From contig JACRJP010000004.1 in NCBI GenBank assembly GCA_016215455.1, positions 155,787 through 219,786 on the forward strand: a DNA stretch of 64,000 bases. Reading direction: 5' to 3'. The notes under the pieces are model-generated. The model was not told where the DNA came from, ran no database searches, and worked only from the letters and a program-made list of their open reading frames with translations. This document shows positions 3,202-62,247 of this stretch, one piece after another. Source of the DNA: Candidatus Tayloriibacteriota bacterium. GTDB lineage: Bacteria; Patescibacteriota; Minisyncoccia; Phycocordibacterales; PALSA-1337. The first letter of the stretch is position 1. Each line of letters begins with the position of its first letter. Position numbers and translations under genes: made by a program.

Positions 3202-3435
3202 GTGAAACTCCACTTGCTTAGGCTTTTGGCCCACATTCTGTTATGGGTATCAAACCTCATCACCATCGGCTTTATCTTGGTATTCCTCACCCGAGGGATC
3301 TTTGATGTAAGCGCATCCCTTTGGAATGGTCTCTTCTACGAGCCATCCTATGGCTTCTTGTTCTTGGCAGCCAATGCGACTGTCATGATTGGAACAAGCT
3401 TAACCCTCTTCATTGGAAAGAAAGGCTCACAATGA
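3202..3435 (+). CDS. Small membrane protein, possible half-transporter partner of the next gene
   Basis: 77 aa with two hydrophobic helices. Its stop overlaps the next start in an ATGA arrangement (translational coupling). Confidence 0.3.
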   Translation: MKLHLLRLLAHILLWVSNLITIGFILVFLTRGIFDVSASLWNGLFYEPSYGFLFLAANATVMIGTSLTLFIGKKGSQ

Positions 3436-3866
3436 GCTGGCAACACTTTTCCTTAGCTTCGTGTTTTCTGTGGGGCTTAACTGGAATCTTTTGCATCAAG
3501 GCGTCAGCAACGGGTCAGAACAACACAGTGTCTTTCCTAGCTTACGTCATCGCATTTGTGTTCACAGCCTTTACAACCTCAATCTCCCAACTTCGGAGTG
3601 GGATGACCTATGATGGAAAGTCACTAGGATTTGCATTCGGTGCTGGGCTCTGTTCAGCTCTCGCAATTATCCTTCAATTCAAAGCACTTGCAGGTTGGAA
3701 AGATCAATCTGCGTGGATCGTGCTCATTGGATGTTTGAATGGAGTAATTGTGGTGCTATACACCCTGTTCTCAGGAGAACGATTCTCCGTGACAAAGTGG
3801 ATGGGTGTCATTTTTGCCATAGTAGCCATTGTGCTCCTCAACTGGCCAAGCAAAGAATCGCGATAA
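3432..3866 (+). CDS. EamA-like (DMT superfamily) small membrane protein
   Basis: Start taken at the internal Met MSWQHF, which overlaps the upstream stop. Four predicted TM helices. The C-terminus GVIFAIVAIVLLNW is typical of an EamA domain. Confidence 0.35.
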   Translation: MSWQHFSLASCFLWGLTGIFCIKASATGQNNTVSFLAYVIAFVFTAFTTSISQLRSGMTYDGKSLGFAFGAGLCSALAIILQFKALAGWKDQSAWIVLIGCLNGVIVVLYTLFSGERFSVTKWMGVIFAIVAIVLLNWPSKESR

Positions 3867-10997: not shown

Positions 10998-11894
10998 ATG
11001 CCTAAGAAAAAATCCAACAAAGAAGAGAAACCGAATTCTCTTTTACTCGTCGCACTATTCCTCCTAATTGGAATCGTGCTCATATGTATACCTTTCATTG
11101 GAAATCTTTTGGGACCAACACCTCCCCGCCCACTAACAGCGTCAGAAATTCACGAAAAAGCTCTAGGCTTGGGATTGATCGGTGCTCCCCCGCACATTGA
11201 AGAACGTCACGTCTCCATCAGCAGTCATTCTCACGCATACGGCAGGAATGGAGACATTCCCGTCCATATCGTATCTCGCACCAATTCGACAGAATCATGG
11301 AAATTGGTAGGAACAGGAACCCTCCTCGGTAAATACACAAACCACGTGCTTACTGCCTACCATGTATTCGAGGATCATGCGGGACAATATGGGTATCGAC
11401 ACATCGGTCCCAACGAGTTTACTGGGAATGAGAAAGTCGTTCCCATCATCTCAGTCAAGGACGATGAAGGAAAAGGAAGCGATGTTGTTATTAGTATATC
11501 TGATCCAACTCGTAGTGAATTTCCGGTATTGACTGTGCCCCGCTCAAATAGCATTCCTAATGGATTTGATGCCGATCAGACCTATATGATCGACACGATT
11601 CAACGGGACATATCGTTCTCCACCTACCCTCATCGAAGCATTAGCACGTTCGTAAAGACAAAAATGACTGAGGCGGGTGCAAATTATGTCTTCATTAACT
11701 GGGTAGCAATGCCAGCTGAGAGTGGAACGTCAGCAATACTTGAAGGTGAGGATTCAAACAGTTATGTAGTCATCATTCGAGGGCAAGCCTTGCCTAAAGA
11801 ATTTTACGACAAACTTTCAGAAGAGGTTCAGCAAACCCTGTCATGGACACCAGAAAAGATGTATGCGGTAGGTAACTTCATTCGCATCGATTAA
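10998..11894 (+). CDS. Membrane-anchored trypsin-like (S1) serine protease-like protein
   Basis: N-terminal TM helix. Candidate catalytic triad context: His in LTAYHV, Asp in GSDVVISI, Ser in AMPAESGTSA (GDSGGP-like). Confidence 0.35.
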   Translation: MPKKKSNKEEKPNSLLLVALFLLIGIVLICIPFIGNLLGPTPPRPLTASEIHEKALGLGLIGAPPHIEERHVSISSHSHAYGRNGDIPVHIVSRTNSTESWKLVGTGTLLGKYTNHVLTAYHVFEDHAGQYGYRHIGPNEFTGNEKVVPIISVKDDEGKGSDVVISISDPTRSEFPVLTVPRSNSIPNGFDADQTYMIDTIQRDISFSTYPHRSISTFVKTKMTEAGANYVFINWVAMPAESGTSAILEGEDSNSYVVIIRGQALPKEFYDKLSEEVQQTLSWTPEKMYAVGNFIRID

Positions 11895-13949: not shown

Positions 13950-14804
13950 TTGATGAAATTTGTTCTGCCACTCATTTCTCTGGCTCCACTTCCCTTATTT
14001 GACCTCGATGGCGTGCTCAGAAAAATCCATGAGGCACACTTCACTGGAATCGAAGTTTTGCTTGGCCCAAAAGTGGACCATGCCAAAATCCGCACTCTGG
14101 CACAAACTCACGGTCTCAGTATCAATTGGCACGAAATCTGGTCTCTCACGGACAATCCGACTCACCACGTCAACTATCTCTTGGCGGCTTTAGGAAGAAT
14201 CCCTTGGAAGACCCATCCCCTCAACAGTCAACTTCCCCTAGCGCTCAGCGAGCCTGTTGTCTGTTATGGACATCGTATAGAAGAAGTTCTAGGATACCGC
14301 GACACTAAGCTCCTGTGGCTCCAAACTTGCAAGGTTATGAGCCGGCACTTGCCCTACAAGGAGTTTGTAAAACTTGTCCAAAGATATCGTCTCCCAATCG
14401 TCTTCGATACCCAACATGTCCTTGAATGGATGTGCGACGCCAATGGAGTTACAGAACTCGGTCGACTTCATTCCTCTGAAGAACTCCAACGTCTCCTTCT
14501 TAAAGCATGGGATGACCTCAGTCCCTACACAGAAGAAATCCATGTGGTTAACTTCAAACCACAAGATGGCCACACTAGGGGACGCAACATTTTCTTAAAC
14601 GAAGGAGGTGTCCTCAAGCTCAGAGAATTCGGTCGTGTGGTCAAAAAGAGTGACTGGAACGGTACAATAACCCCTGAGATCGCTCCTGCACACTTCTCCA
14701 CCTTAAGGATTCCTGGTGTTCCCATCAATCTACTGTGGGAGTCGGAACATCTCGGACATCGACTTCTTGAGTTGCGAGAAATCGTAGGGGGTATATTTTC
14801 CTAA
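13950..14804 (+). CDS. Sugar phosphate isomerase/epimerase-like (xylose isomerase-like TIM barrel) protein (GC-rich island)
   Basis: LPIVFDTQHV and EEIHVVNF resemble the metal-ligand motifs of the AP_endonuc_2 TIM-barrel family. GC is about 50%. Confidence 0.35.
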   Translation: MMKFVLPLISLAPLPLFDLDGVLRKIHEAHFTGIEVLLGPKVDHAKIRTLAQTHGLSINWHEIWSLTDNPTHHVNYLLAALGRIPWKTHPLNSQLPLALSEPVVCYGHRIEEVLGYRDTKLLWLQTCKVMSRHLPYKEFVKLVQRYRLPIVFDTQHVLEWMCDANGVTELGRLHSSEELQRLLLKAWDDLSPYTEEIHVVNFKPQDGHTRGRNIFLNEGGVLKLREFGRVVKKSDWNGTITPEIAPAHFSTLRIPGVPINLLWESEHLGHRLLELREIVGGIFS

Positions 14805-26267: not shown

Positions 26268-26774
26268 ATGCCTCACGACGCAACAACAGTAGCGGAAGGA
26301 CCGCTAGCTCCCGTCAAAGTGTTCGCGATCACATGTCGCGATCCGAGATTCAAACCCTTCTTTTTGAAACTCCTTGAGGGAATCACAGAAGGGATCACGA
26401 ATGGCTACTTCCGACTGACACAGTTTGGAGGAATTGCTCACCTGAGTGAAAACCTCCCTATCAGTCGCCGCTTCGCCCGATCCATCACCGATGAGATGGT
26501 CATGGGCTGTGGCTTGATGAAACCCGAGGAGCTTGTCCTCGTAACTCATCAGAACTGCGCCGGTTGCAAGACCCTCAACTACATCACAGACGGTGAAGAG
26601 GATGCGGTATTCCAGAAACGAAAACTGGTGGCCGCCACACGGAAACTCCTTCCTCTCGCCCGTCGTTGCGACACCCTCGCGACGATCAGATGTTTCCATG
26701 TGTATGCGAACGGCACATGGGAGGAATTGGCTCCGACTCCCGTAAAACGGCGTCGAAAGAAATCTAAGGCTTGA
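26268..26774 (+). CDS. Hypothetical protein with a CxxC motif (GC-rich island)
   Basis: 168 aa at about 53% GC. THQNCAGC motif and a basic C-terminal tail. No family recognised. Confidence 0.4.
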   Translation: MPHDATTVAEGPLAPVKVFAITCRDPRFKPFFLKLLEGITEGITNGYFRLTQFGGIAHLSENLPISRRFARSITDEMVMGCGLMKPEELVLVTHQNCAGCKTLNYITDGEEDAVFQKRKLVAATRKLLPLARRCDTLATIRCFHVYANGTWEELAPTPVKRRRKKSKA

Positions 26775-30084: not shown

Positions 30085-31515
30085 TTAGGGTCTAACCATG
30101 CGATAGAACTTGAGGTCACTTTCCGTATCGAACTTGTAACCACGAAGACCATCCTCAGCCATGGAAAGCGTTTCGATGAGACTCCATGACTTGAGGTCAG
30201 GCGAGCCTTCGAGACGATAGGCTGTATCCGGCTGTCCCGACATGAGAATGTTCACGTAAGTGAAACCTGCGGGAGCCAGACTGATACTGACCGTCGCGGG
30301 CCACACGTAAGGATCGAGGTTCATGCCGTTAAGCGTCGCACGCGTAATGGGTCCAACAAAACCTGTTGCTGGAATTCCGTTAGCAGCTTGAAATGCTTTG
30401 ACTCCTGCTTGGGTAAGTTCACCGAAGTAAGGGCTGCCATCCACCTCATACGTCTCGAGGGAAACACCCAAGAACCGTTGCAGGATGAGCACGTCATAAC
30501 CAACACTGCCGACAGTCAGATTCGTCGCAAAAAGGAATCGTGCAAGCGACCTGACTACGATACCTTGATTGGCATTGTTGATCGTCGGCAGAAGTTGATA
30601 TCCCAACGCGTCCGTAGCTGTTCCAAAAGAACCACATTCCGCACTCAGGGTTACCCCTGTCGGGAAATTCGTTCCGAGGATACCCGTCACGATGAACTGA
30701 TGAATCCCCTTCGGAATCTTGATATCGCCATTGAAGACGACTCCGCTTGAAACCTTGTTGTCAAAGGGTATTGCATCAAAGGATCCACCGATCTGCGTGC
30801 CATTTTCGTCGGTCAGGGTAATTGATTGAGTGATAGCCCTCTCACCCCCCGACAAATTGAACGCGACAGAAAAATACGGAATTGTGACATCCGTGCCCTC
30901 CACGGTTACCGTAAACTTGGCAAGCACAACAGGATTTGTGCTTCCTTGCACCGATGTAGGCGCAGTGGTATTTTGAATGTCGAGCTTTCCTACAACGACG
31001 TTGGTATCGATCGTGTAGAAATTTCCACGAATCGGGAACGGAGTTGCAAATGTGACCCGATCAGACAACTCAGTGAAATATCCATCAGCCGCAGCTCCGA
31101 CGACTTCGAGTCCAACATTTTGCCCTTGGAAGAGCGTGAGATCGGAAGCGAATTGGGCGGAGATGACTACGGTATTGGTCTCACCCTGCGTGAGAAATAT
31201 CGGGCCCACGAGTATGGGAGAGTGAGGAAGAAATCCAAAAGGACCTCGACTTATCTCCTTCAGGTCACTTCCGACATAAATGCCGGTCATAGGATTTCCA
31301 TTCCATAGTGAGTTTCCCATTGGTTGCACTGCAAGATACAGCGGCGGAGGGAACTTTTTGTCGCTCTCAGTCACGAGGACCGTGAGCATGGGCACAATAG
31401 CCCCCTGGGCAGCCGACATAAGTGGTGGTTGATTGGTCGTCTCCAGGATGGAGAACGTGGTGGCATAGACACGGAGGAAGCTCACAAGAGCCAGGACCAA
31501 CAATGAGATCTTCAT
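30085..31515 (-). CDS. Secreted protein with C-terminal peptidoglycan-binding (PG_binding_1-like) domain (GC-rich island)
   Basis: Start at MKISLLVLALVSFLRVYA (signal peptide). The segment VGYDVLILQRFLGVSLETYEVDGSPYFGELTQAGVKAFQAANGIPATGFVGPITRATL matches the PG_binding_1 consensus. Confidence 0.5.
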   Translation of the reverse strand: MKISLLVLALVSFLRVYATTFSILETTNQPPLMSAAQGAIVPMLTVLVTESDKKFPPPLYLAVQPMGNSLWNGNPMTGIYVGSDLKEISRGPFGFLPHSPILVGPIFLTQGETNTVVISAQFASDLTLFQGQNVGLEVVGAAADGYFTELSDRVTFATPFPIRGNFYTIDTNVVVGKLDIQNTTAPTSVQGSTNPVVLAKFTVTVEGTDVTIPYFSVAFNLSGGERAITQSITLTDENGTQIGGSFDAIPFDNKVSSGVVFNGDIKIPKGIHQFIVTGILGTNFPTGVTLSAECGSFGTATDALGYQLLPTINNANQGIVVRSLARFLFATNLTVGSVGYDVLILQRFLGVSLETYEVDGSPYFGELTQAGVKAFQAANGIPATGFVGPITRATLNGMNLDPYVWPATVSISLAPAGFTYVNILMSGQPDTAYRLEGSPDLKSWSLIETLSMAEDGLRGYKFDTESDLKFYRMVRP

Positions 31516-31591
31516 GGTTTTCAGTGAACAGACGTTATAGTGATATTCAAGGCTTCTACGCATAGGCGTAAAAATCAAGAATCTGCCAAAT

Positions 31592-43413: not shown

Positions 43414-45582
43414 CTAAAGAACAGTCTCTGACGAAGTTGCAACTTCCTCCACAGTTGATACAGGCTCAGGAGTTGGGGTTACTTCTTCAATTGTTGTTAC
43501 AGGAGCTGGAATTACTTCCTCAGTAGTTGTTGCAGGGGTTTCAGACGACACTTCAGGTTTTACCAACTCAACTAAAGTAGTAGTACCAACATCTATTGCT
43601 ACAGGTGTCGTTGTAGATGTATCTGGTATGACGACAATTTCTGGAGTAGCCACAGTGTTACTTACAACATTTGCGCTGCCGCACTGTCCCATTCTCTTAA
43701 ACCAATCACCGTTACGGATAGTAAAACAGTATGTATCTCCTGTTGCTTCATCTTTCATTTCAATACCACCAGCTGACAAACTCTTAGTTGTAACATTATT
43801 ACTTATTACCTTATCAACTTCTATCGTAGAAGTTGCTGTATACGTCATATGACCCTTAAGAAAATCTATCTGTGACTGGAGTTCCTGCATCCCCTTTACA
43901 ATATATGGAATAACTTGAGCATACAGAACTGATTTAATTCCACTAGCATCTGTTCTCACGAGTTCAGGAAACACTCGTTCAACATCCTGAGCCAAGAAAC
44001 CAACCTGTTGATCAGAATCAGGATTTGATTTCCAATTAAAATACACTGATCGTAATGTGAGAAGTTTACCTAACGATGATTTTGGTAGTTCTGTTATATT
44101 CGTTTTGAGATTTTCATCAGATGTACATGAGAAACCTGTACCAGCAACAACAGTACACTGAGTACCTCCTGACCCTTCAAAACGTGCCACGTTGGTCGTT
44201 GTGGTTGTTGAAACATGAAGGCGATATAAAGGAGACGCTATTCCAATACCCAAACTTCCACGAGCTGCAGAAGTACCTTCATCAACATAGTCTGAATACA
44301 AGACATTACCGATATTCATACCATTCGATCGATTAGTAAATCCTGTACCCGCACCAATTAAAATATTATTTGATCCAGTTGTAAGATTGTTACCTGCACT
44401 AGAACCAATTACCACATTACTACTTCCTGTATTAATATCGTCCGCAGCAGAAGAACCGATGACAACATTGTACCCACCGGAAGAAATATACTCTCCCGAT
44501 TCACTACCGATGGCCACGTTTCCTTTTCCTGAAGTCAGACGAGTTAGTGCCTGATATCCAATAGCAGTAGAATTGTAATTATACCCAGACCCTATACCAG
44601 CCATTGCTTCATACCCTATTGCCACCGAATAATTACCTGATCCACTTTCGAGATTATTTGCTGCGTATGATCCTACAAATACCGCACTATTAGGTACATA
44701 TGTCTGGCTTGTATTATTACTATATATGTTATCACCAATCAAAACACTATAACCATTACCGCTGTCGAGATACGGTGCCACATTATCTCCTACCAAAGTC
44801 ATACCATACATACTACTAGTAATAGAACCTAACCCTGTCCTTCCTATTAAGGTTACATCTTGTTCTGGAAAAACTCGAAAAACAGGACTTGATGAAGCAG
44901 TTATAAAGCTTCCATTTGTTAACTCTAATCTTCCACTGACCGTTGTTGTTCCAACAACAGCTAGAGCTGATACAGGTGAAGTTGTTCCTATACCCAAAAA
45001 CCCAGTCACTGTTACATCATCTGAGAATGAAGTATCTCCAGAAAACGAAGCTCCTGTTACAGAAGGACTTGCGATTGTTGAATTAGAAATTGTAGCACCG
45101 CTGATGTTTGATACGTTTGCAGTAATTGCCTGACTTATCGAACGACGATCTGAATCATTCTGTCGTGTTTGATGAGCTCGTAATGCAGTAAGTTCGTTTC
45201 GAAACTGTTGCATCGCCATAGCATCAACCGTATTAAATACTTGCGTAATTGGTGATACGTAAATTGGTTTTTCTATTTCCCGTACTAACGTCTCACGAAT
45301 CACAGTTGTTGTAGCGTATAACACAGGAGAGGTAGACGAAGCTGTACTTGTCGCACTTAAATCACTCAATATCGCTTGAGATGTCTGTAGAGCACTAACG
45401 GTATTTGCTACAGAAGCAGCAGATCCTTCTGACAATACATTACGTACAACACCGAATATAGATGTGATTTTTTTACCAAGATCTTCAAATGAAAAAGCAT
45501 GGGTAACGGATGGTACAAGACACACGACCATTGCAATAGCTACAACTCGACGTATCAACTTTGTATTATTAAATATTCTCAT
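43414..45582 (-). CDS. Secreted tail-fibre-like surface protein: Hep_Hag-like Gly-rich repeats plus Peptidase_S74 intramolecular chaperone domain plus Thr/Pro-rich tail
   Basis: Signal peptide MRIFNNTKLIRRVVAIAMVVCLVPSVTHA. Repeats such as NVVIGSSAADDINTGSSNVVIGSSAGNNLTTGSNNILIGAGTG. S74-like segment SDENLKTNITELPKSSLGKLLTLRSVYFNWKSNPDSDQQVGFLAQDVERVFPELV. Confidence 0.55.
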   Translation of the reverse strand: MRIFNNTKLIRRVVAIAMVVCLVPSVTHAFSFEDLGKKITSIFGVVRNVLSEGSAASVANTVSALQTSQAILSDLSATSTASSTSPVLYATTTVIRETLVREIEKPIYVSPITQVFNTVDAMAMQQFRNELTALRAHQTRQNDSDRRSISQAITANVSNISGATISNSTIASPSVTGASFSGDTSFSDDVTVTGFLGIGTTSPVSALAVVGTTTVSGRLELTNGSFITASSSPVFRVFPEQDVTLIGRTGLGSITSSMYGMTLVGDNVAPYLDSGNGYSVLIGDNIYSNNTSQTYVPNSAVFVGSYAANNLESGSGNYSVAIGYEAMAGIGSGYNYNSTAIGYQALTRLTSGKGNVAIGSESGEYISSGGYNVVIGSSAADDINTGSSNVVIGSSAGNNLTTGSNNILIGAGTGFTNRSNGMNIGNVLYSDYVDEGTSAARGSLGIGIASPLYRLHVSTTTTTNVARFEGSGGTQCTVVAGTGFSCTSDENLKTNITELPKSSLGKLLTLRSVYFNWKSNPDSDQQVGFLAQDVERVFPELVRTDASGIKSVLYAQVIPYIVKGMQELQSQIDFLKGHMTYTATSTIEVDKVISNNVTTKSLSAGGIEMKDEATGDTYCFTIRNGDWFKRMGQCGSANVVSNTVATPEIVVIPDTSTTTPVAIDVGTTTLVELVKPEVSSETPATTTEEVIPAPVTTIEEVTPTPEPVSTVEEVATSSETVL

Positions 45583-45646: not shown

Positions 45647-47914
45647 CTATTTCGCTACCTTTACTGCTTCATCAAATTGAATTGAAAGAAGTTTTGATCC
45701 CCCATCAGCTCCCATAGTTACTCCGTAGAGGGTTCCGGCACGTGACATTGTTTCGCGGTTATGAGTAATGAGAATAAGCTGAGAATACTTCGCGAGACTT
45801 TCGATCATGTCTCCATATTTTCGAGAATTAGCTTCATCGAGTGCTGCGTCTGTTTCATCAAGAATGATAAATGGAGGTGGATTTACTTGAGAAATAGCAA
45901 AGAGAAGTGCAATCGATGTCAGTGCTCGTTCTCCACCTGAAAGCATCATAAGACTTTTTACTTTCTTTCGTGGAAGATTTACCGCAATCTCAATCCCCTC
46001 TCGACCATCTTCATCTTCAGTATTCTCAGGTAGCGGTGCCTCATCATCAAGAAGAACGCTAAGATCTGTGTCACTTTTCTTACGTTTCTTCTCTCGAATC
46101 ACCTGAAGCTCAGCAGAACCTCCCCCGAACATAAGCGAGAAGAAATGAGAAAACTGGGCATTGATTTTGAGAATCCCCTCTTTGAATTCAAGATCGAGAC
46201 GAGTGTCGAGATCAGCAATAAGATTTTCAAGAGACTGCTTGGCTAAAACAAGGTCAGTAAGTTCTTTCTCAAGAAATGCATCACGTTCTTCTACTTCTTT
46301 GCATTCCTTAAGTACATCATCAGCGTTACCTGTTCCTGAATCTTCAATACGGATTTTAAGTTTTTCAAGTACACGTTTACGATCCTCCTGAGCTTGTCGA
46401 GGTTCGACAAAATGAGGATCAACAACAATACTCTTTACGTCAACCGCCTCTCGTCCTGCAAGAATATATGCTTCATTAAGTTCACGCTTGTACGCATCCT
46501 CTTCAAGAGAAATCCGTTCACTGCGACCATTCAATGTATTAAGAATTGATCGTACTTCATTCTGGCGGGCAATAATACGAAACACTTCCTTTTCAGCATC
46601 ACGATTTGAATCTTTTTCTCGTTCAATAGAATCTTTGAGGACTGCGTAACGATGACCAAGTTCTTTTTCACGAACTTCCGCATTCTCACTTTGAGCAGTA
46701 AGTTTTTTCTTTGAATCTTCAAGTTTGTTAATTTCAGCTTCAGTGGTAACACCCTTGTCAGTCGGTGCTGTCGTAGTTTTATGAAGAGAAATAAAACCAA
46801 AGAGTAATTCTTTGATACTTCCAAAAATACTCTGAAGCTCTTCAACTGACTTCTTTTCAAAAGAATGTCCAATGTGTTGGTCAACTTTACGAACGATTTC
46901 TTCAACATCCTTGAGGTACACAGTTTTAGAATCCTCACGTGCCTGCTGTTCTCTTTCTTTTGCAATGACGCGCTTAAGAGCTCCAATTTCTCCATCAATC
47001 TGACCAAGTTCACGTGTATACCCATCTCGTTCACGTCGAATATCAGCAAGTGCCTTTTCAAGAGCAATTACTTCATTACTTGTACCATCTTTGTTTTTTG
47101 ATTTCTCGAGTACAGATCGAGCGTGTTCAAGTTCTTTATCAAGCCGAGCTAATTCATGTGCTGGTTGTGCTTTTTCTTTAGCGATAGTATTTTTCTCACG
47201 AGCCAAATATATTTCTTCACGTTTAAGATATTCACGATATAGGCCTCGCAATTCTTCTCGCATTTCACGAACTTTCTCCGCTTTTTCTACCTGCTTTTTG
47301 AGAAATTTGAGATGTGGAGCAATCTCCTTTCGAAGTGACTCAACTTGCTCCATATTTTCTTCTGTTTTCTCGAGCTTACGAATACTTTCCTGCTTTTTAT
47401 AGTGATAGACCTTGAGACCAAGAGCATCTTCGATCATCTCACGTCGTTCATGCATGTTTGCTGAAAGAATTCGATCAGCTTCACCTTGAGAGATAATATG
47501 ATGACCTGACGCGCCAATATGTGCTCCAGCAAGAAGTTCGATGACATCTTTAAGACGAACTTGGCTACCATTAATGAGATACTCATTAATTCCATCTCGA
47601 TGAACAAGACGTTCAATTGTTACTTCATCAAAATCAATATTGAGAATTCTCTTCGCATTATCAAACACAACCTTGACCGAGGCACGATTCACACGACCAG
47701 CTTCAGCGCTGCCATTGAAAATAAGATCTTCTCCCCGCTTACCACGCATCGATTTGATTGATTGCTCTCCAAGTACAAAACGAAAAGCTTCCGCGACGTT
47801 TGATTTACCAGAACCATTTGGTCCTACGATTGATGCGATGGGAGAAGTAAAAGAAAGCGTTGCCTTTTTGGCAAACGACTTGAATCCAGAAATCTCGAGT
47901 GACTTCAAATACAT
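45647..47914 (-). CDS. smc: Chromosome segregation ATPase SMC (short, 755 aa)
   Basis: N-terminal Walker A GPNGSGKSN, a long coiled-coil, and the C-terminal signature LSGGERALTSIALLFA followed by Walker B ILDETDAALD. Confidence 0.8.
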   Translation of the reverse strand: MYLKSLEISGFKSFAKKATLSFTSPIASIVGPNGSGKSNVAEAFRFVLGEQSIKSMRGKRGEDLIFNGSAEAGRVNRASVKVVFDNAKRILNIDFDEVTIERLVHRDGINEYLINGSQVRLKDVIELLAGAHIGASGHHIISQGEADRILSANMHERREMIEDALGLKVYHYKKQESIRKLEKTEENMEQVESLRKEIAPHLKFLKKQVEKAEKVREMREELRGLYREYLKREEIYLAREKNTIAKEKAQPAHELARLDKELEHARSVLEKSKNKDGTSNEVIALEKALADIRRERDGYTRELGQIDGEIGALKRVIAKEREQQAREDSKTVYLKDVEEIVRKVDQHIGHSFEKKSVEELQSIFGSIKELLFGFISLHKTTTAPTDKGVTTEAEINKLEDSKKKLTAQSENAEVREKELGHRYAVLKDSIEREKDSNRDAEKEVFRIIARQNEVRSILNTLNGRSERISLEEDAYKRELNEAYILAGREAVDVKSIVVDPHFVEPRQAQEDRKRVLEKLKIRIEDSGTGNADDVLKECKEVEERDAFLEKELTDLVLAKQSLENLIADLDTRLDLEFKEGILKINAQFSHFFSLMFGGGSAELQVIREKKRKKSDTDLSVLLDDEAPLPENTEDEDGREGIEIAVNLPRKKVKSLMMLSGGERALTSIALLFAISQVNPPPFIILDETDAALDEANSRKYGDMIESLAKYSQLILITHNRETMSRAGTLYGVTMGADGGSKLLSIQFDEAVKVAK

Positions 47915-48292: not shown

Positions 48293-48997
48293 TTACCACC
48301 CCTTCACTTCAAGTGCCTTCTCGGCCGCTTTTTGTTCTGCTTCTTGTTTTGAGAGTCCTGCACCAGTCGCTATTTGTACATCACCGAGAAATACAGCAAG
48401 AGTAAATTGCTTACTATGATCTGGTCCTGTTTCCTTAAGTGTCTTATACGACGGTGTAATACCATGAACCTCCTGAGCTTTTTCTTGAAAACGACTCTTT
48501 GCATCAAGCCATAGTTTCTTCGCTACAATCTCTTCAATATCAATGACCTCAAGAATGTGTTGAGAAATAAAATTTGCAGCAGCTCCATATCCTTGATCAA
48601 CGTAGATAGCGCCGATAATAGCCTCAATTGCATCAGCGAGAATAATGCCACGAGCACGACCATTGTCACGTGATTCACCACGAGAAAGAAGGATGTAATT
48701 ATTAACCTCAAGATACTGGGCTACTTTTGAAAGACTTACTGTATTCACAATAGCCGAACGATACGCGGTCAAATCACCTTCTGCATGACCAGGGTATTTT
48801 TGAAAAAGGAAAAATGTTACTACAAGTTCAAGTACTGCATCTCCAAGAAATTCAAGACGTTCGTTATGTTCCAAACCAAGTCCTTTATTTTCATTTATAT
48901 ATGAACGATGCGTACATGCACGTCGAAGAATAGCCTTATCCTTAAAGGATACGCCTATTTTTCTCTCTAATTCTTCAAAATTTACATATTGCTTCAT
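48293..48997 (-). CDS. rnc: Ribonuclease III
   Basis: ERLEFLGDAVLELVV RNase III signature and a C-terminal dsRBD. Confidence 0.92.
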   Translation of the reverse strand: MKQYVNFEELERKIGVSFKDKAILRRACTHRSYINENKGLGLEHNERLEFLGDAVLELVVTFFLFQKYPGHAEGDLTAYRSAIVNTVSLSKVAQYLEVNNYILLSRGESRDNGRARGIILADAIEAIIGAIYVDQGYGAAANFISQHILEVIDIEEIVAKKLWLDAKSRFQEKAQEVHGITPSYKTLKETGPDHSKQFTLAVFLGDVQIATGAGLSKQEAEQKAAEKALEVKGW

Positions 48998-49034: not shown

Positions 49035-49964
49035 CTACTTAACCACCTTCTCCTTGGCAGTTTTTTTCTCGGTAAGTAACATCACTGCTTTTGTGACAAT
49101 CGGAAGAATGTCGTTATAGAAATTGAGTTCAAGAATATCAGTGAGACGAAACCATCGAGCATCATCTAGTCCTCCACTTGTACCAAGAGTGATCTGATCA
49201 AAATTAGCCTTTCCTAGATAGTAGTGTACCTGCTTACGAAGTTTTCCTTTCTCAGGATCAGAAGCAATATATTCATTACTTCCCAAGTCTTCGATAATCT
49301 CAATATCAAGACCCATCTCTTCTTTGATCTCACGAATAGTTCCGGCTGGTACATCCTCGTCAGGTTCTATCTTACCTTTTGAAAGAGTCCAATGTCCGAA
49401 TACATCATGTACAAGTGCGAGATATATTTCTCCTTCATTGTGAGCATACACCACAGCACCTCCAAGTTTCTGAATTGGCATCTTCTCATATGGAATATCA
49501 GGAATCTTTACTTTCTTTTTGCGAGGAGCTGCATCTTTACCTGGTTCACCGAGTTCTTTATACACTGATCCAAGTACACCGTTAATGAACTTACTACTAT
49601 TTTCACCACCGAATGTTTTAGCAAGTTCGATTGATTCATTGATCGCTACTTTTGCAGGAACTTCATCACGATTAGCAAAAATGAGTTCATACAAACCAAG
49701 ACGAAGGATATTACGATCAACAGGAGAAATTTTGTCGAGAGGCCAATCTGGAGCAGCTTTTTCAATGACATTATCAAGATCAGGTCGTTTAGAAATTATA
49801 TTCTTTGCAAGATCTTCGATAAAAGAAAAGTCGCCCATACCAGGAGCATACTCCTCTGCATTGCGGGCGACAATTTTCTTTATTTCTTCATCATGGCGAC
49901 CTCTGAAATCCCACTCAAAGAGTGATTGTAGAACTACGGAGCGTGAGAGATGTCGATTTGCCAT
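49035..49964 (-). CDS. nusB: NusB transcription antitermination factor fused to a C-terminal Nudix hydrolase domain
   Basis: N-terminal half is NusB-like (SRSVVLQSLFEWDF...RNILRLGLYEL). C-terminal half has the Nudix box GKIEPDEDVPAGTIREIKEEMGL. Start chosen at MANRHL (49964); the ORF is open to 49994. Confidence 0.8.
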   Translation of the reverse strand: MANRHLSRSVVLQSLFEWDFRGRHDEEIKKIVARNAEEYAPGMGDFSFIEDLAKNIISKRPDLDNVIEKAAPDWPLDKISPVDRNILRLGLYELIFANRDEVPAKVAINESIELAKTFGGENSSKFINGVLGSVYKELGEPGKDAAPRKKKVKIPDIPYEKMPIQKLGGAVVYAHNEGEIYLALVHDVFGHWTLSKGKIEPDEDVPAGTIREIKEEMGLDIEIIEDLGSNEYIASDPEKGKLRKQVHYYLGKANFDQITLGTSGGLDDARWFRLTDILELNFYNDILPIVTKAVMLLTEKKTAKEKVVK

Positions 49965-50002
49965 ATTTTTGTGAAGATCTTCTATAAAACCCAACCTGTC
50001 AT

Positions 50003-50233
50003 CTATCGTGCTACTGTTGTTTCTTTTGCTTTTGCCTTATTGAGCTTCTTATCAACTGCAGCTTTCATATCAACTACCATTCTCCCTTTATAATACCCAC
50101 ATTGACCACACATAACGTGAGAGCGGTGCAGAGCAGCGCAATTTGAACACTTTGAAAGACGAGCATCACTCAAAGCGTGATGTGATCGTCGATTGTCTCG
50201 GTGAGCCCGAGTAGCACGCATTCTGTTTACCAT
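50003..50233 (-). CDS. rpmF: 50S ribosomal protein L32 (zinc-ribbon type)
   Basis: RDNRRSHHAL matches the L32 signature, followed by the Cys cluster CSNC...CGQCGYYKGR. Start taken at MVNRMRA. Confidence 0.85.
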   Translation of the reverse strand: MVNRMRATRAHRDNRRSHHALSDARLSKCSNCAALHRSHVMCGQCGYYKGRMVVDMKAAVDKKLNKAKAKETTVAR

Positions 50234-50333
50234 ATACCCGCCAGTATACATTAATTTCCCATAAAGGCAAGAGGTTACAGGCCATATACGGTATAAAGAG
50301 AATATCTGTAAAATTAATAAAAATTTGGCTCAT

Positions 50334-50897
50334 TCAATCTCGAAGAATGTCGAGCCGATGCAAAACGGTCCCAAAACTTTCTTGTTCCGGACCAGAGAGG
50401 TATTTCAGATAGGCGTTGGCCGCCTGAATGAACCCCTCCCTGTGATTTGCAAAACACCACCGCATAAAGACCTCAAGAGGAACTGGGCGTGCCCAGATGT
50501 AATCTCCATCAGGCTCCCTGCGCCAATCAGCTTGATTGATGTCAGGGAAAACATGTGAGGTTGCGGTCGGCAATGTCGTGAAGACTGGCGTAATATTGCT
50601 TACCCGCCACTCCGTGACGAGAAAGAAATACTTGGTGTGACTCGCGTAACTGCGATCACAAAAGGCTTCCGAGGAACTGATGACCGAGACACCTGTCTCG
50701 TTCAAGAGCTCTCTCGCTAAACAATGTTGAGGAGATTCTGACTCCTCCTTCATCCCCGAACCTCCGGGAAGTTTGACCTCATCGGTGAACCGGCTACTTG
50801 TAACCCCGATTACCGTCCATGTGGCGCCAATCTTGGCAAACATGGCCCCGGCGGCAAAAAACGTCGACGAATCCTTTTTCTTTGATTTCATTGGCAT
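50334..50897 (-). CDS. Nudix hydrolase (GC-rich island)
   Basis: Nudix box LPGGSGMKEESESPQHCLARELLNETGV. GC is about 52%. Confidence 0.65.
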   Translation of the reverse strand: MPMKSKKKDSSTFFAAGAMFAKIGATWTVIGVTSSRFTDEVKLPGGSGMKEESESPQHCLARELLNETGVSVISSSEAFCDRSYASHTKYFFLVTEWRVSNITPVFTTLPTATSHVFPDINQADWRREPDGDYIWARPVPLEVFMRWCFANHREGFIQAANAYLKYLSGPEQESFGTVLHRLDILRD

Positions 50898-50984
50898 CCT
50901 TACTCATGGAGAACCTTAAAAAATCACACGAATACATCGTGCGCGTGAGTGTTTGAAAATCACATCAAGGTTCTAGCTAAAATG

Positions 50985-51013
50985 ACTATACTACATAATA
51001 TAAATATAGTCAA
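50985..51013 (-). promoter_or_regulatory. Putative promoter TTGACT-17nt-TATAGT for the GC-rich Nudix gene
   Basis: Reverse complement of 50985-51013 reads TTGACTATATTTATATTATGTAGTATAGT. Confidence 0.3.
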
Positions 51014-51039: not shown

Positions 51040-51630
51040 TCAATTTTGAGCAAGGAAATTAGCCAAAAATGAGCGTCGATGAACAACTGACACTCCTTTG
51101 TTTCTCAGAGCTGTATAGTGGTTTTTAGTACCATATCCTTTATGCACTTCAAACCCGTATCCTGGATATTTTTTTGCCAACTGTGTCATCTTGCGATCAC
51201 GAAGAACCTTCGCAACAATGGAAGCAAGAGCAATAGCAAGCTCTTTTTCATCTCCTTTTATAATCGTTGTTTGATGTAAGTATTGTGCTGGTGCCTTAAG
51301 TCCCCCATCAAGAAGTACGTGAGATTTTTGGGGTGACACTTTGAGCTTCGTAAGCGACGTACTTAAAGCAGACCGAATCGCATAGGAAAGACCTTTTGAG
51401 TCAATTATCTTTTCACTGACAAATGTCACTTTTGTTTTCAGTAGTCCCTTTTTCTCAGCATCATATATTCGCTTGAACCACTCTTCTCTCTGTCGTTCAG
51501 AAAGTTTCTTTGAATCTTTAAAATTCTTAAAACTCAGTGCAATTCTTGGTACGAGTAAAACACACGCCCCAACAGCAACGGGACCGGCGATAGGGCCACG
51601 ACCAACTTCATCAATACCAATAAGATACAT
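51040..51630 (-). CDS. rnhB: Ribonuclease HII
   Basis: MYLIGIDEVGRGPIAGPV N-terminal catalytic motif (DEVGRG). Confidence 0.9.
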   Translation of the reverse strand: MYLIGIDEVGRGPIAGPVAVGACVLLVPRIALSFKNFKDSKKLSERQREEWFKRIYDAEKKGLLKTKVTFVSEKIIDSKGLSYAIRSALSTSLTKLKVSPQKSHVLLDGGLKAPAQYLHQTTIIKGDEKELAIALASIVAKVLRDRKMTQLAKKYPGYGFEVHKGYGTKNHYTALRNKGVSVVHRRSFLANFLAQN

Positions 51631-51638
51631 ATCTATTA

Positions 51639-52199
51639 CTACTGCACAATAACTGTCATTAAATTATTACTGAATCCAGGGCACTGCTGCGATGTAATTT
51701 TTCCATCAGTGTTATATGCATATAGGATATTAAGACCTGGACAAACTCTTCCTCCTTGCGGAGAACTCATCCACCAACAATTATTTCCTGTACCTGTACC
51801 AGGAGCACCAACTGGTGGTCCCTTATCTGATGTCGTATCACAGTAAGCGAAACCGTAATAACGCCATACTGTTGGACCTGCCTCATTACTCACTGGATCA
51901 ACCGGTACCTTAGACATATATTTTGGAACCAGAGCACTTATAAAACTAGCAGTCCAATCACCAGCTACCGCTGCTGAATATGCCCCGAGAGGAGGATATG
52001 CTCCATTATTATCCGATTGATATAAAGCGATAGCATTTCTAATCTGAGTCAGATGCTGTATTCGTAATGCATCTCGAGAACGAGCACGAGCCTGTGTTAG
52101 TGATGCAAGTACTACTGATGACAAAAGACCGATTATTGAAATAACAACAAGAAGTTCTATTAATGTAAAGCCCGCACTTTTCCGAGTTTGTATTTTCAT
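51639..52199 (-). CDS. Type IV pilin (PilA-like; candidate major pilin)
   Basis: KSAGFTLIELLVVISIIGLLSSVVL is a canonical prepilin motif and hydrophobic helix. The C-terminal region has Cys residues. Confidence 0.7.
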   Translation of the reverse strand: MKIQTRKSAGFTLIELLVVISIIGLLSSVVLASLTQARARSRDALRIQHLTQIRNAIALYQSDNNGAYPPLGAYSAAVAGDWTASFISALVPKYMSKVPVDPVSNEAGPTVWRYYGFAYCDTTSDKGPPVGAPGTGTGNNCWWMSSPQGGRVCPGLNILYAYNTDGKITSQQCPGFSNNLMTVIVQ

Positions 52200-61800: not shown

Positions 61801-62247
61801 ATGCACACAACCACTCTCTGGGACCTCACCAAAGGATTCGAAGCCATTTTTAACAGTCCAACATTTGCAGGCCAAAACTGGCCACAGTTTGAGCATCGTG
61901 CGTTGCACGATCTCTCCTCCGGCCATTTCCTCGATCGCGGTTATGAAGTCGTGCGCGGGGAGGTTGGAAGGCTACCTATCTTCCTTCAAGGTGGTAGCGA
62001 CCGCGTCGAGCTAATCGCTTCAGACGTGCCGCCACACATCGCCTATGCCACGCGGCACTTCAGCGATTTGAGAGCCCTCATGAACCATCTCGTCGAGAGT
62101 AAGGAGTTCGAACTCGTCGAGGGAGGACGGTTCGACGTTGATCGCAACGACTTACGGGCAGTGCTCCTCAAGCACGTGACCTCGGGTGATGTCATTCAAC
62201 TCATCTGGCGGCATAAACAGATCTTTAGAGGAGTATTCCCAGAATAA
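61801..62247 (+). CDS. Hypothetical protein (GC-rich island)
   Basis: 148 aa at about 55% GC. A putative TTGACT-17nt-TAGTGT promoter lies upstream near 61731-61759. No family recognised. Confidence 0.3.
   Translation: MHTTTLWDLTKGFEAIFNSPTFAGQNWPQFEHRALHDLSSGHFLDRGYEVVRGEVGRLPIFLQGGSDRVELIASDVPPHIAYATRHFSDLRALMNHLVESKEFELVEGGRFDVDRNDLRAVLLKHVTSGDVIQLIWRHKQIFRGVFPE

Follow-up and report, generated by a model that had tools for sequence, protein, structure and literature searches.

A Nudix domain fused to NusB across Paceibacteria may act as a tethered nucleoside-polyphosphate binder

Introduction

NusB is a universal core factor of transcription and ribosome biogenesis, and is normally a bare protein of 140 amino acids (aa). 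What, then, is a nucleotide-handling domain doing on its C-terminus in a clade of bacteria with reduced genomes? The question is raised by a gene in a 64,000-nucleotide (nt) stretch of a Candidatus Tayloriibacteriota assembly (GCA_016215455.1, contig JACRJP010000004.1), which we call the window throughout and to which all coordinates refer. A preliminary description of this DNA had read the gene as a NusB protein extended by a complete Nudix domain, with a second, stand-alone Nudix gene nearby, and had suggested that a NusB-tethered Nudix enzyme might decap NAD-capped or other nucleotide-capped RNAs, and in doing so couple surveillance of RNA 5' ends to the transcription complex. Full-text literature searches returned no paper on the NusB-Nudix architecture, which is abundant in public data yet annotated just as 'transcription antitermination factor NusB', and the fusion is apparently undescribed. 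We posit - with a confidence that is evenly balanced - that the added domain is a tethered nucleoside-polyphosphate binder on a housekeeping NusB, and only sometimes a hydrolase. The parts of the fusion gene are as follows.

49035..49964, minus strand: nusB-nudix fusion coding sequence, 309 aa, ATG start, with PF01029 and PF00293 within a single open reading frame (ORF)
49551..49964, minus strand: NusB domain, residues 1-138, seven helices (PF01029, E 6.8e-34; AlphaFold2 model)
49476..49550, minus strand: flexible linker, residues 139-163, a GEPGKD motif followed by a Lys-rich stretch (from the predicted local distance difference test, pLDDT, and the tails of relatives)
49065..49475, minus strand: Nudix domain, residues 164-300, Ap4A (diadenosine tetraphosphate) hydrolase-like (PF00293, E 8.8e-14; Foldseek)
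49308..49376, minus strand: canonical Nudix box of the fusion, GKIEPDEDVPAGTIREIKEEMGL, residues 197-219, read off the sequence

Results

One gene, two domains

The two domains lie in one unbroken ORF, in which Pfam places NusB at residues 17-146 and NUDIX at residues 184-294 in the numbering of a 319-aa version that extends to a TTG at 49994 (49035-49994). Translation begins at the ATG at 49964, since every homologue starts with MANRHLSRS, and the protein therefore has 309 aa; residue numbers refer to this 309-aa protein unless the 319-aa ORF is named. The N-terminal part belongs to the NusB family, scoring 117.6 bits against the PF01029 cut-off of 23.1 and 123.2 bits against the 88.35 of the NCBIfam nusB equivalog TIGR01951, and phmmer matches it to solved NusB structures with E-values down to 1e-19. 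The fused Nudix domain scores 52.1 bits against a PF00293 cut-off of 21.1.

Could an assembly error or a frameshift have joined two separate genes? A stop or frameshift between the NusB and Nudix parts had been named beforehand as the observation that would count against a fusion, and it is absent. Four other contigs, from other assemblies and different samples, encode exactly the same 309-aa protein, and a 100% identical public protein (P0001) is named NusB of 'Candidatus Taylorbacteria'. The best 120 database matches are all of ~300 aa and 71-80% identical, nearly all with both Pfam domains, and a HMMER search of 1.84 billion cluster representatives recovered full-length fusions in ~50 clusters (formed at 50% identity), with identities as low as ~30%; in 48 diverse fusion members, Pfam found NusB in every one and NUDIX in 39. 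With the same ORF in four other assemblies and full-length homologues by the hundred from different projects - more than 200 full-length fusions were collected - an artefact is ruled out and a chance joining of two genes is scarcely conceivable. No support for it was found; a few database entries do look split or truncated, namely a protein that starts within the linker (P0227) and two related loci (L043 and L050) whose fusion ORF is broken, perhaps by a frameshift, an assembly error or decay into a pseudogene. The single fusion gene of the preliminary description is confirmed both in its coordinates and in its content.

Two strain variants differ from the fusion gene of the window at 9-10 synonymous and 0 non-synonymous codons; by this measure the gene is under strong purifying selection. 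The architecture itself is widespread across lineages of the Paceibacteria (Parcubacteria, within the Candidate Phyla Radiation, CPR).

A NusB core and a tethered Nudix domain

The NusB fold is all-helical and has seven helices. In an AlphaFold2 model of the fusion (mean pLDDT 80.8, predicted template modelling score, pTM, 0.50), seven helices lie between residues 4 and 138, with pLDDT mostly 75-92, in agreement with this fold. An alpha/beta Nudix domain occupies residues 164-300, and residues 141-154 are disordered (pLDDT <50) within a linker that opens with an invariant GEPGKD motif and continues with Lys-rich residues. As pTM is 0.50 and the model has no confident packing between the domains, the Nudix domain is best described as tethered.

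An Ap4A hydrolase-like Nudix domain

The Nudix box of the fusion, G197-KIEPD-E-DVPAGTI-RE-I-K-EE-M-G-L219, fits the pattern GX5EX7REUXEEXGU exactly, and the box is intact in the window protein, as had been claimed. By sequence, the closest solved relative is Rv2985/MutT1 of M. tuberculosis (E 3.5e-10), a diadenosine polyphosphatase and 8-oxo-GTPase, and further relatives are the Ap4A hydrolases of C. elegans and Aquifex and the Ap6A hydrolase Ndx1 of T. thermophilus. By structure, the top Foldseek match is the Aquifex Ap4A hydrolase 3i7u, with a target-normalised template modelling (TM) score of 0.87 that identifies a Nudix fold; the next matches are Rv2985, Dcp2, the non-catalytic Nudix domain of NrtR (hit 5), the C. 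elegans and human Ap4A hydrolases and CT771, with Ndx1 also matched. The stretch H191-W-T-x-x-K196-G before the box corresponds to the HWTPPKG of Ap4A hydrolases, and Y283 falls opposite the adenine-stacking Tyr121 of C. elegans Ap4A hydrolase. At the position of C. elegans Y76 the fusion has a Ser, with Y232 three residues off in a stretch where the alignment is ambiguous.

The curated models of known decapping enzymes reject the domain. It reaches 15.5 bits against a cut-off of 158 for the NudC-type model NF001299 (NAD(+) diphosphatase), 23.4 against 118 for the RppH model NF001936, and 14-15 against 116-139 for the RppH models NF001937 and NF001938. The MutT1 model NF052459 (33.4 bits against 475) aligns with the Nudix part only, and the fusion protein ends after its Nudix domain, without the C-terminal histidine-phosphatase domain of MutT1. 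With these scores, and with Ap4A/Ap6A hydrolases and MutT1 as nearest neighbours, decapping of the NAD-RNA type finds no backing. Sequence likeness instead suggests an Ap4A/Np(n)N (dinucleoside polyphosphate) hydrolase type of domain, for which an Np(n)N or Np4-type (nucleoside tetraphosphate) ligand is a better lead than an NAD cap.

Repeated loss of the catalytic box

Is hydrolysis, then, what the fused domain is kept for? We read the box positions from an alignment of 222 full-length fusions, and the full set E..RE..EE is complete in only 74 of them. Retention differs along the box: 54% for the Glu of Gx5E, 55% for the Arg, 38% for the Glu of the RE pair (hereafter the RE Glu), and 86% and 92% for the first and second Glu of EE. 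The RE Glu has become Lys in 62% of box-degenerate fusions; it is the residue altered in the crystallised E58A form of human Ap4A hydrolase, as a comparison of 3u53 (ALRETQEE) with 4ick/4ijx (ALRATQEE) makes plain. On a neighbour-joining (NJ) tree built without the box columns, the box changed between intact and degenerate states at least 33 times, and its state differs within 31 pairs of proteins that are >90% identical in NusB. Amongst GTDB species representatives the box is intact in ~38%.

The domain around the box has persisted. At equal NusB divergence, Nudix identity outside the box is 0.81 for degenerate versus 0.80 for intact pairs in the 0.8-0.9 bin of NusB identity, and 0.72 versus 0.76 in the 0.7-0.8 bin. 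W192, T193, K196, Y232, K244, Y248, W271 and Y283 are each kept in 89-97% of box-degenerate proteins. Since catalytic residues have been lost repeatedly whilst the domain persists, canonical hydrolysis is not the conserved, selected property, and the Lys, Tyr and Trp residues that remain would suit a domain that goes on binding a nucleoside polyphosphate. Judged from these alignments, the family as a whole probably binds an RNA 5' end or a nucleoside polyphosphate, and some members, plausibly the window protein among them, have kept hydrolysis.

An ordinary nusB locus with an added domain

Where does the fusion sit, and from where did the Nudix part come? We counted the best 80 loci amongst GTDB contigs taken at one genome per species: the Nudix part is encoded in 50, and NusB stands alone in 29. 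The record titles of the fusion loci name Kaiser-, Zambryski-, Niyogi-, Nomura-, Ryan- and Komeili-bacteria and 'Paceibacterota', and those of the NusB-only loci name Moran-, Yanofsky-, Azam-, Staskawicz-, Wildermuth- and Nealson-bacteria. Fusion and NusB-only loci have in common the array (rnhB)-rpmF-nusB-rnc-(smc), with rpmF upstream of nusB in 74 of the 80 and rnc downstream of nusB or nusB-nudix in nearly all. This common array marks the fusion as the orthologue of an ordinary nusB.

No neighbouring gene still present in sister lineages was the source of the Nudix part: each of the 29 NusB-only loci has rnc directly after nusB and no Nudix ORF in between, and we reject capture of an adjacent gene as far as extant relatives are concerned. 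Many NusB-only relatives end in E[IML]GEP[GML]KD and a charged tail of 20-45 residues, and the Nudix domain was therefore added onto a tail that already carried the motif and a charged end. One NusB-only protein of 165 aa (L049:38-532), whose gene is followed directly by rnc, shares 64% identity with the NusB domain of the window, more than the NusB of many fusion-bearing species does, which suggests secondary loss of its Nudix part.

Close relatives of the fused domain also exist as separate proteins: P0261 and P0243 (142 aa each) and P0227 (149 aa) are 52-60% identical to it and combine a generic 'PGG' box region with a fusion-type C-terminal half (NEY.ASDP...GLDDARWF...LNFY.D). P0227, which begins inside the linker (MGEPD...), may be a naturally split version of the fusion.

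The stand-alone gene and its variable slot

The remaining features of the locus, with the gene that had been described as a second Nudix hydrolase, are these.

51040..51630, minus strand: rnhB (RNase HII; Pfam RNase_HII, E 5.6e-39), the upstream edge of a variable slot
50925..51013, minus strand: promoter-like TTGACT-17-TATAGT (51013-50985), then a hairpin and T-run (50943-50925), from a consensus scan
50334..50897, minus strand: stand-alone, marginally Nudix-like gene, 187 aa, rich in GC at third codon positions (GC3) (Pfam NUDIX 22.4 bits versus a cut-off of 21.1)
50688..50756, minus strand: deviant box of the stand-alone gene, GMKEESE-SPQHCLA-RELLNETGV, residues 48-70, read off the sequence
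50003..50251, minus strand: rpmF (ribosomal protein L32; Pfam Ribosomal_L32p, E 8.5e-16, and TIGR01031)
48293..48997, minus strand: rnc (RNase III; Pfam Ribonucleas_3_3 and dsrm), 37 nt downstream of the fusion
45647..47914, minus strand: short smc, downstream of rnc

The order on the minus strand is thus rnhB, the 187-aa ORF, rpmF, nusB-nudix, rnc and smc. The start of the fusion lies 340-370 nt from the stop of the 187-aa ORF upstream, with only rpmF (whose true start is probably the ATG at 50233) between them, which bears out both the 370-nt spacing and the sole intervening gene reported earlier. The 64-kb window holds no second nusB and no other Nudix gene.

Strain variants speak for the 187-aa ORF as a real gene, since their synonymous and non-synonymous codon differences (7:2 and 11:6) are biased towards the synonymous; three other assemblies have a gene call at the same place, and other assemblies give it 185 aa (ATG 50891). 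Its foreign composition stands: GC is 0.51 (z 2.9; window mean 0.41), and GC3 is 0.55 against 0.23-0.33 in neighbouring genes. As a Nudix hydrolase, on the other hand, it is marginal and not clear. Pfam NUDIX passes narrowly and over residues 42-92 only, the best match in the PDB is an 8-oxo-dGTPase (7syc, E 7e-4), and DIPP alignments run across residues 27-98, with the box region aligning with boxes of both MutT and DIPP type. The box itself, G48x5E54x7R62E63LLN66E67TGV, departs from the canonical pattern by having Asn66 for the first Glu of EE. AlphaFold2 run without an alignment gave a mean pLDDT of 38, too low for a fold to be read. Amongst 5.8 billion proteins the stand-alone protein matches only its own strain variant, tblastn found no match to the gene in phage and plasmid collections, and PHROGs and PADLOC gave generic weak Nudix matches only.

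Is this gene related to the fused domain beside it? An origin as a copy of that domain is rejected, with an hhalign probability of 10% and no BLASTP match from the fused domain at E <= 10, and by this comparison the two are unrelated beyond the level of the superfamily. The interval between rnhB and rpmF proves to be a variable slot in relatives, from ~26 nt to 1.4 kb. In three fusion-bearing relatives (L016, L017 and L019) it too holds small, very divergent Nudix genes, and the four slot proteins, the window's included, share features beyond the box - KxPGG, an FFL strand, a DG motif and a C-terminal [FY]xxH...A...L helix - with those of L016 and L019 clearly homologous (E 2e-21). A profile of the four retrieves those four and one further protein only. 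The slot of L017 (2236-3690) carries two tandem Nudix-like ORFs, of 176 aa with a perfect box and of 196 aa with a degenerate one; in other species (L032, L035, L037 and L046) unrelated ORFs of 125-223 aa lie between rnhB and rpmF. From these comparisons we read the stand-alone gene as one of a sparse slot family that evolves fast, acquired laterally and probably exchanged between Paceibacteria of differing GC content. A slot Nudix that compensates for a degenerate fused box is rejected too: of the four hosts, three carry an intact box in their fusion, the presence of a slot Nudix does not track the state of that box, and no evidence ties the stand-alone gene to the fusion in function.

The TTGACT-17-TATAGT site is the best promoter-like site of the region and falls in the interval between rnhB and the 187-aa gene, with the GC hairpin and T-run ~40 nt on, before the start codon. 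These elements (50925-51013) could be a terminator of rnhB plus a promoter, or a short leader. Promoter-like sites serve as leads only, since their count does not exceed that in shuffled sequence.

Other genes of the neighbourhood

Upstream, rnhB is adjoined by a type IV pilin-like gene with an N_methyl motif (51639-52199, minus strand), whose position is kept in strain variants and whose GC3 is unusually low (0.23) and GC at second codon positions (GC2) high (0.50). Downstream, the SMC homologue (45647-47914, minus strand) has just 755 aa, with both halves of the ATPase head, marked by an N-terminal Walker A and a C-terminal LSGGE/DE, and no Pfam match to a hinge domain; the shortening seems typical of the clade, since relatives align across a similar ~2.2 kb. 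Adjoining smc, a 722-aa protein (43414-45582, minus strand) carries a Peptidase_S74 domain at residues 488-543. Peptidase_S74 is the intramolecular chaperone of endosialidase and tail-fibre proteins, and its usual home is phage tail fibres.

Eight scattered single genes between core genes have a GC3 of 0.43-0.60, against 0.22-0.36 for the rest: 158-631, 3321-3866, 10998-11894, 13950-14804, 26268-26774, 30085-31578, 50334-50897 and 61801-62247. Among them are a GNAT acetyltransferase, an EamA transporter fragment and a PG_binding protein, along with several ORFs that have no Pfam family, and the genome appears peppered with singly inserted accessory genes of higher GC.

Discussion

How might a NusB protein make use of a Nudix domain? 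In a large Paceibacteria clade, a Nudix domain of the Ap4A/Np(n)N type has been joined to the disordered, Lys-rich C-terminal tail of NusB. The NusB part presumably still binds S10 (NusE) and boxA RNA, and would ride with RNA polymerase on rRNA and other boxA transcripts. There, we suggest, the Nudix module would hold a free dinucleoside polyphosphate, or else the (p)pp or Np4 5' end of a nascent leader that bears boxA, with NusB keeping the leader's 5' end close to the module. Box-intact members, the window protein among them, would probably also cleave the bound moiety. The fusion gene adjoins rnc, which encodes the RNase that processes pre-rRNA. A bolder version, which we consider doubtful, would make the NusB of a major CPR lineage a nucleotide-sensing factor: its Nudix domain, often a pseudoenzyme, would bind an alarmone (Ap4A) or the Np4 or triphosphate 5' end of the pre-rRNA leader, and stress or nucleotide state would thereby bear on how the rRNA antitermination and processing complex assembles or acts; the domain would be a built-in replacement for SuhB-like subunits.

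Perhaps, instead, NusB brings an active Nudix enzyme to the transcript, where it removes NAD, Np4 or triphosphate from nascent RNA 5' ends as a co-transcriptional decapping enzyme or pyrophosphohydrolase. The canonical box of the window protein and of 74 of 222 fusions would suit such a role, as would Ap4A-type hydrolases and Dcp2 amongst the neighbours in sequence and fold. As boxA sits in 5' leaders, a domain tethered to NusB would be near a 5' end. Np(n)N caps do occur on bacterial RNA, from which the Nudix enzyme RppH removes them (PMC7044304, PMC8833179). However, the domain has stayed through the repeated loss of its catalytic Glu (at least 33 changes of box state; RE Glu at 38%), so catalysis cannot be the conserved function, the curated NudC and RppH models fall far short, and no RNA-binding feature was identified in the Nudix part. 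We judge this account unlikely. The earlier idea of NusB-tethered 5'-end surveillance loses with it the obligatory catalysis, which is not conserved, whilst the idea is still allowed for box-intact members.

The very persistence of the domain after loss of the box could equally be read as that of a purely structural pseudoenzyme, a protein-protein scaffold in a Paceibacteria antitermination complex that is analogous to SuhB and binds no nucleotide. Against this stand the conservation of K196, K244 and Y283, residues which serve polyphosphate binding and base stacking in Ap4A hydrolases, and of the last Glu of the box (92%), a pattern that suits ligand binding better than a bare scaffold; a perfect box in one third of members and the want of confident interdomain packing in the AlphaFold2 model also speak against it, and we find a bare scaffold quite improbable. 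Or is the fusion of the Rosetta-stone kind, in which a housecleaning Nudix enzyme for Ap4A or 8-oxo-GTP is merely co-expressed with NusB and the two share no mechanism? That MutT1 is the top sequence match would agree with this, as would the close stand-alone relatives with canonical boxes (P0261 and P0243), but the fusion is stable across proteins down to ~30% identity, and a housecleaning enzyme would be expected to decay or disappear once its catalytic residues had gone, whereas here the domain stays as conserved as in box-intact lineages. For the family, we regard an uncoupled fusion as very unlikely.

We return to the tethered nucleoside-polyphosphate binder, against which several considerations nonetheless weigh. 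For box-intact members, an uncoupled fusion of a housecleaning enzyme is possible. Some Nudix enzymes work with non-canonical boxes, and 'degenerate' need not therefore mean inactive. The proposed ligand is suggested solely by likeness to enzymes at ~25% identity, and the predicted model, with its pTM of 0.50, does not fix how the NusB and Nudix domains are placed relative to each other. The window, moreover, offers no rRNA operon or boxA to look at: a scan of the whole 64 kb with Rfam returned no family at gathering score, be it tRNA, rRNA, riboswitch or leader.

What would such a protein tell us? The fusion suggests that rRNA transcription and processing carry a lineage-specific layer in these organisms, which cannot yet be cultured by themselves. 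Intact and eroded boxes occur side by side, a natural experiment on how an enzyme becomes a binding module. And if the ligand were an Np(n)N alarmone or a non-canonical 5' cap, the fusion would be a direct physical link between such molecules and the transcription machinery.

Comparison with known systems

Set against an ordinary bacterial NusB, the fusion has the same N-terminal 138 residues with seven helices and the same position between rpmF and rnc as its NusB-only relatives, and differs by ~170 extra C-terminal residues that form the tether and the Nudix domain. With the Ap4A/Np(n)N hydrolases (3i7u aq_158, 1kt9/1ktg, NUDT2 3u53, Ndx1 and CT771) and with Rv2985/MutT1, the fused domain shares the HWTxxKG motif; yet its identity to the hydrolases is just 22-28%, it sits on NusB, and two thirds of the fusion orthologues are without catalytic residues, above all the RE Glu. 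RppH and NudC belong to the same Nudix superfamily and are the model for the idea of 5'-end surveillance, whilst their curated models do not recognise the fused domain.

A precedent for joining the NusB fold to an rRNA enzyme is found in RsmB/Sun, where an N-terminal NusB-like domain is fused to a 16S rRNA 5-methylcytosine (m5C) methyltransferase. RsmB models match residues ~48-153 of the 319-aa ORF (~38-143 of the 309-aa protein) with E 3e-13, but their scores lie far under the cut-offs (49 versus 319 bits), the fusion has no methyltransferase domain, and its NusB is a bona fide orthologue. SuhB, for its part, is an enzyme-fold subunit of the E. coli rRNA antitermination complex with NusB, NusE and boxA (PMC6614797, PMC6614801, PMC4807359), and its growth phenotype is not associated with mutants defective in inositol monophosphatase (IMPase) activity (PMC4807359). 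Unlike the fused Nudix domain, it has an unrelated IMPase fold and is a separate subunit, and the likeness between the two would be one of analogy.

NrtR-type regulators sense ADP-ribose and related ligands through a Nudix domain that is not catalytic. NrtR and AraR - the latter a sequence match of the fused Nudix domain (E 2e-4) - would resemble the fusion in carrying a Nudix domain with an eroded box as a ligand-binding module on a transcription factor. Their partner, however, is a winged-helix DNA binder, whereas that of the fusion is the RNA-binding NusB, and the box of the fusion is still intact in one third of its members.

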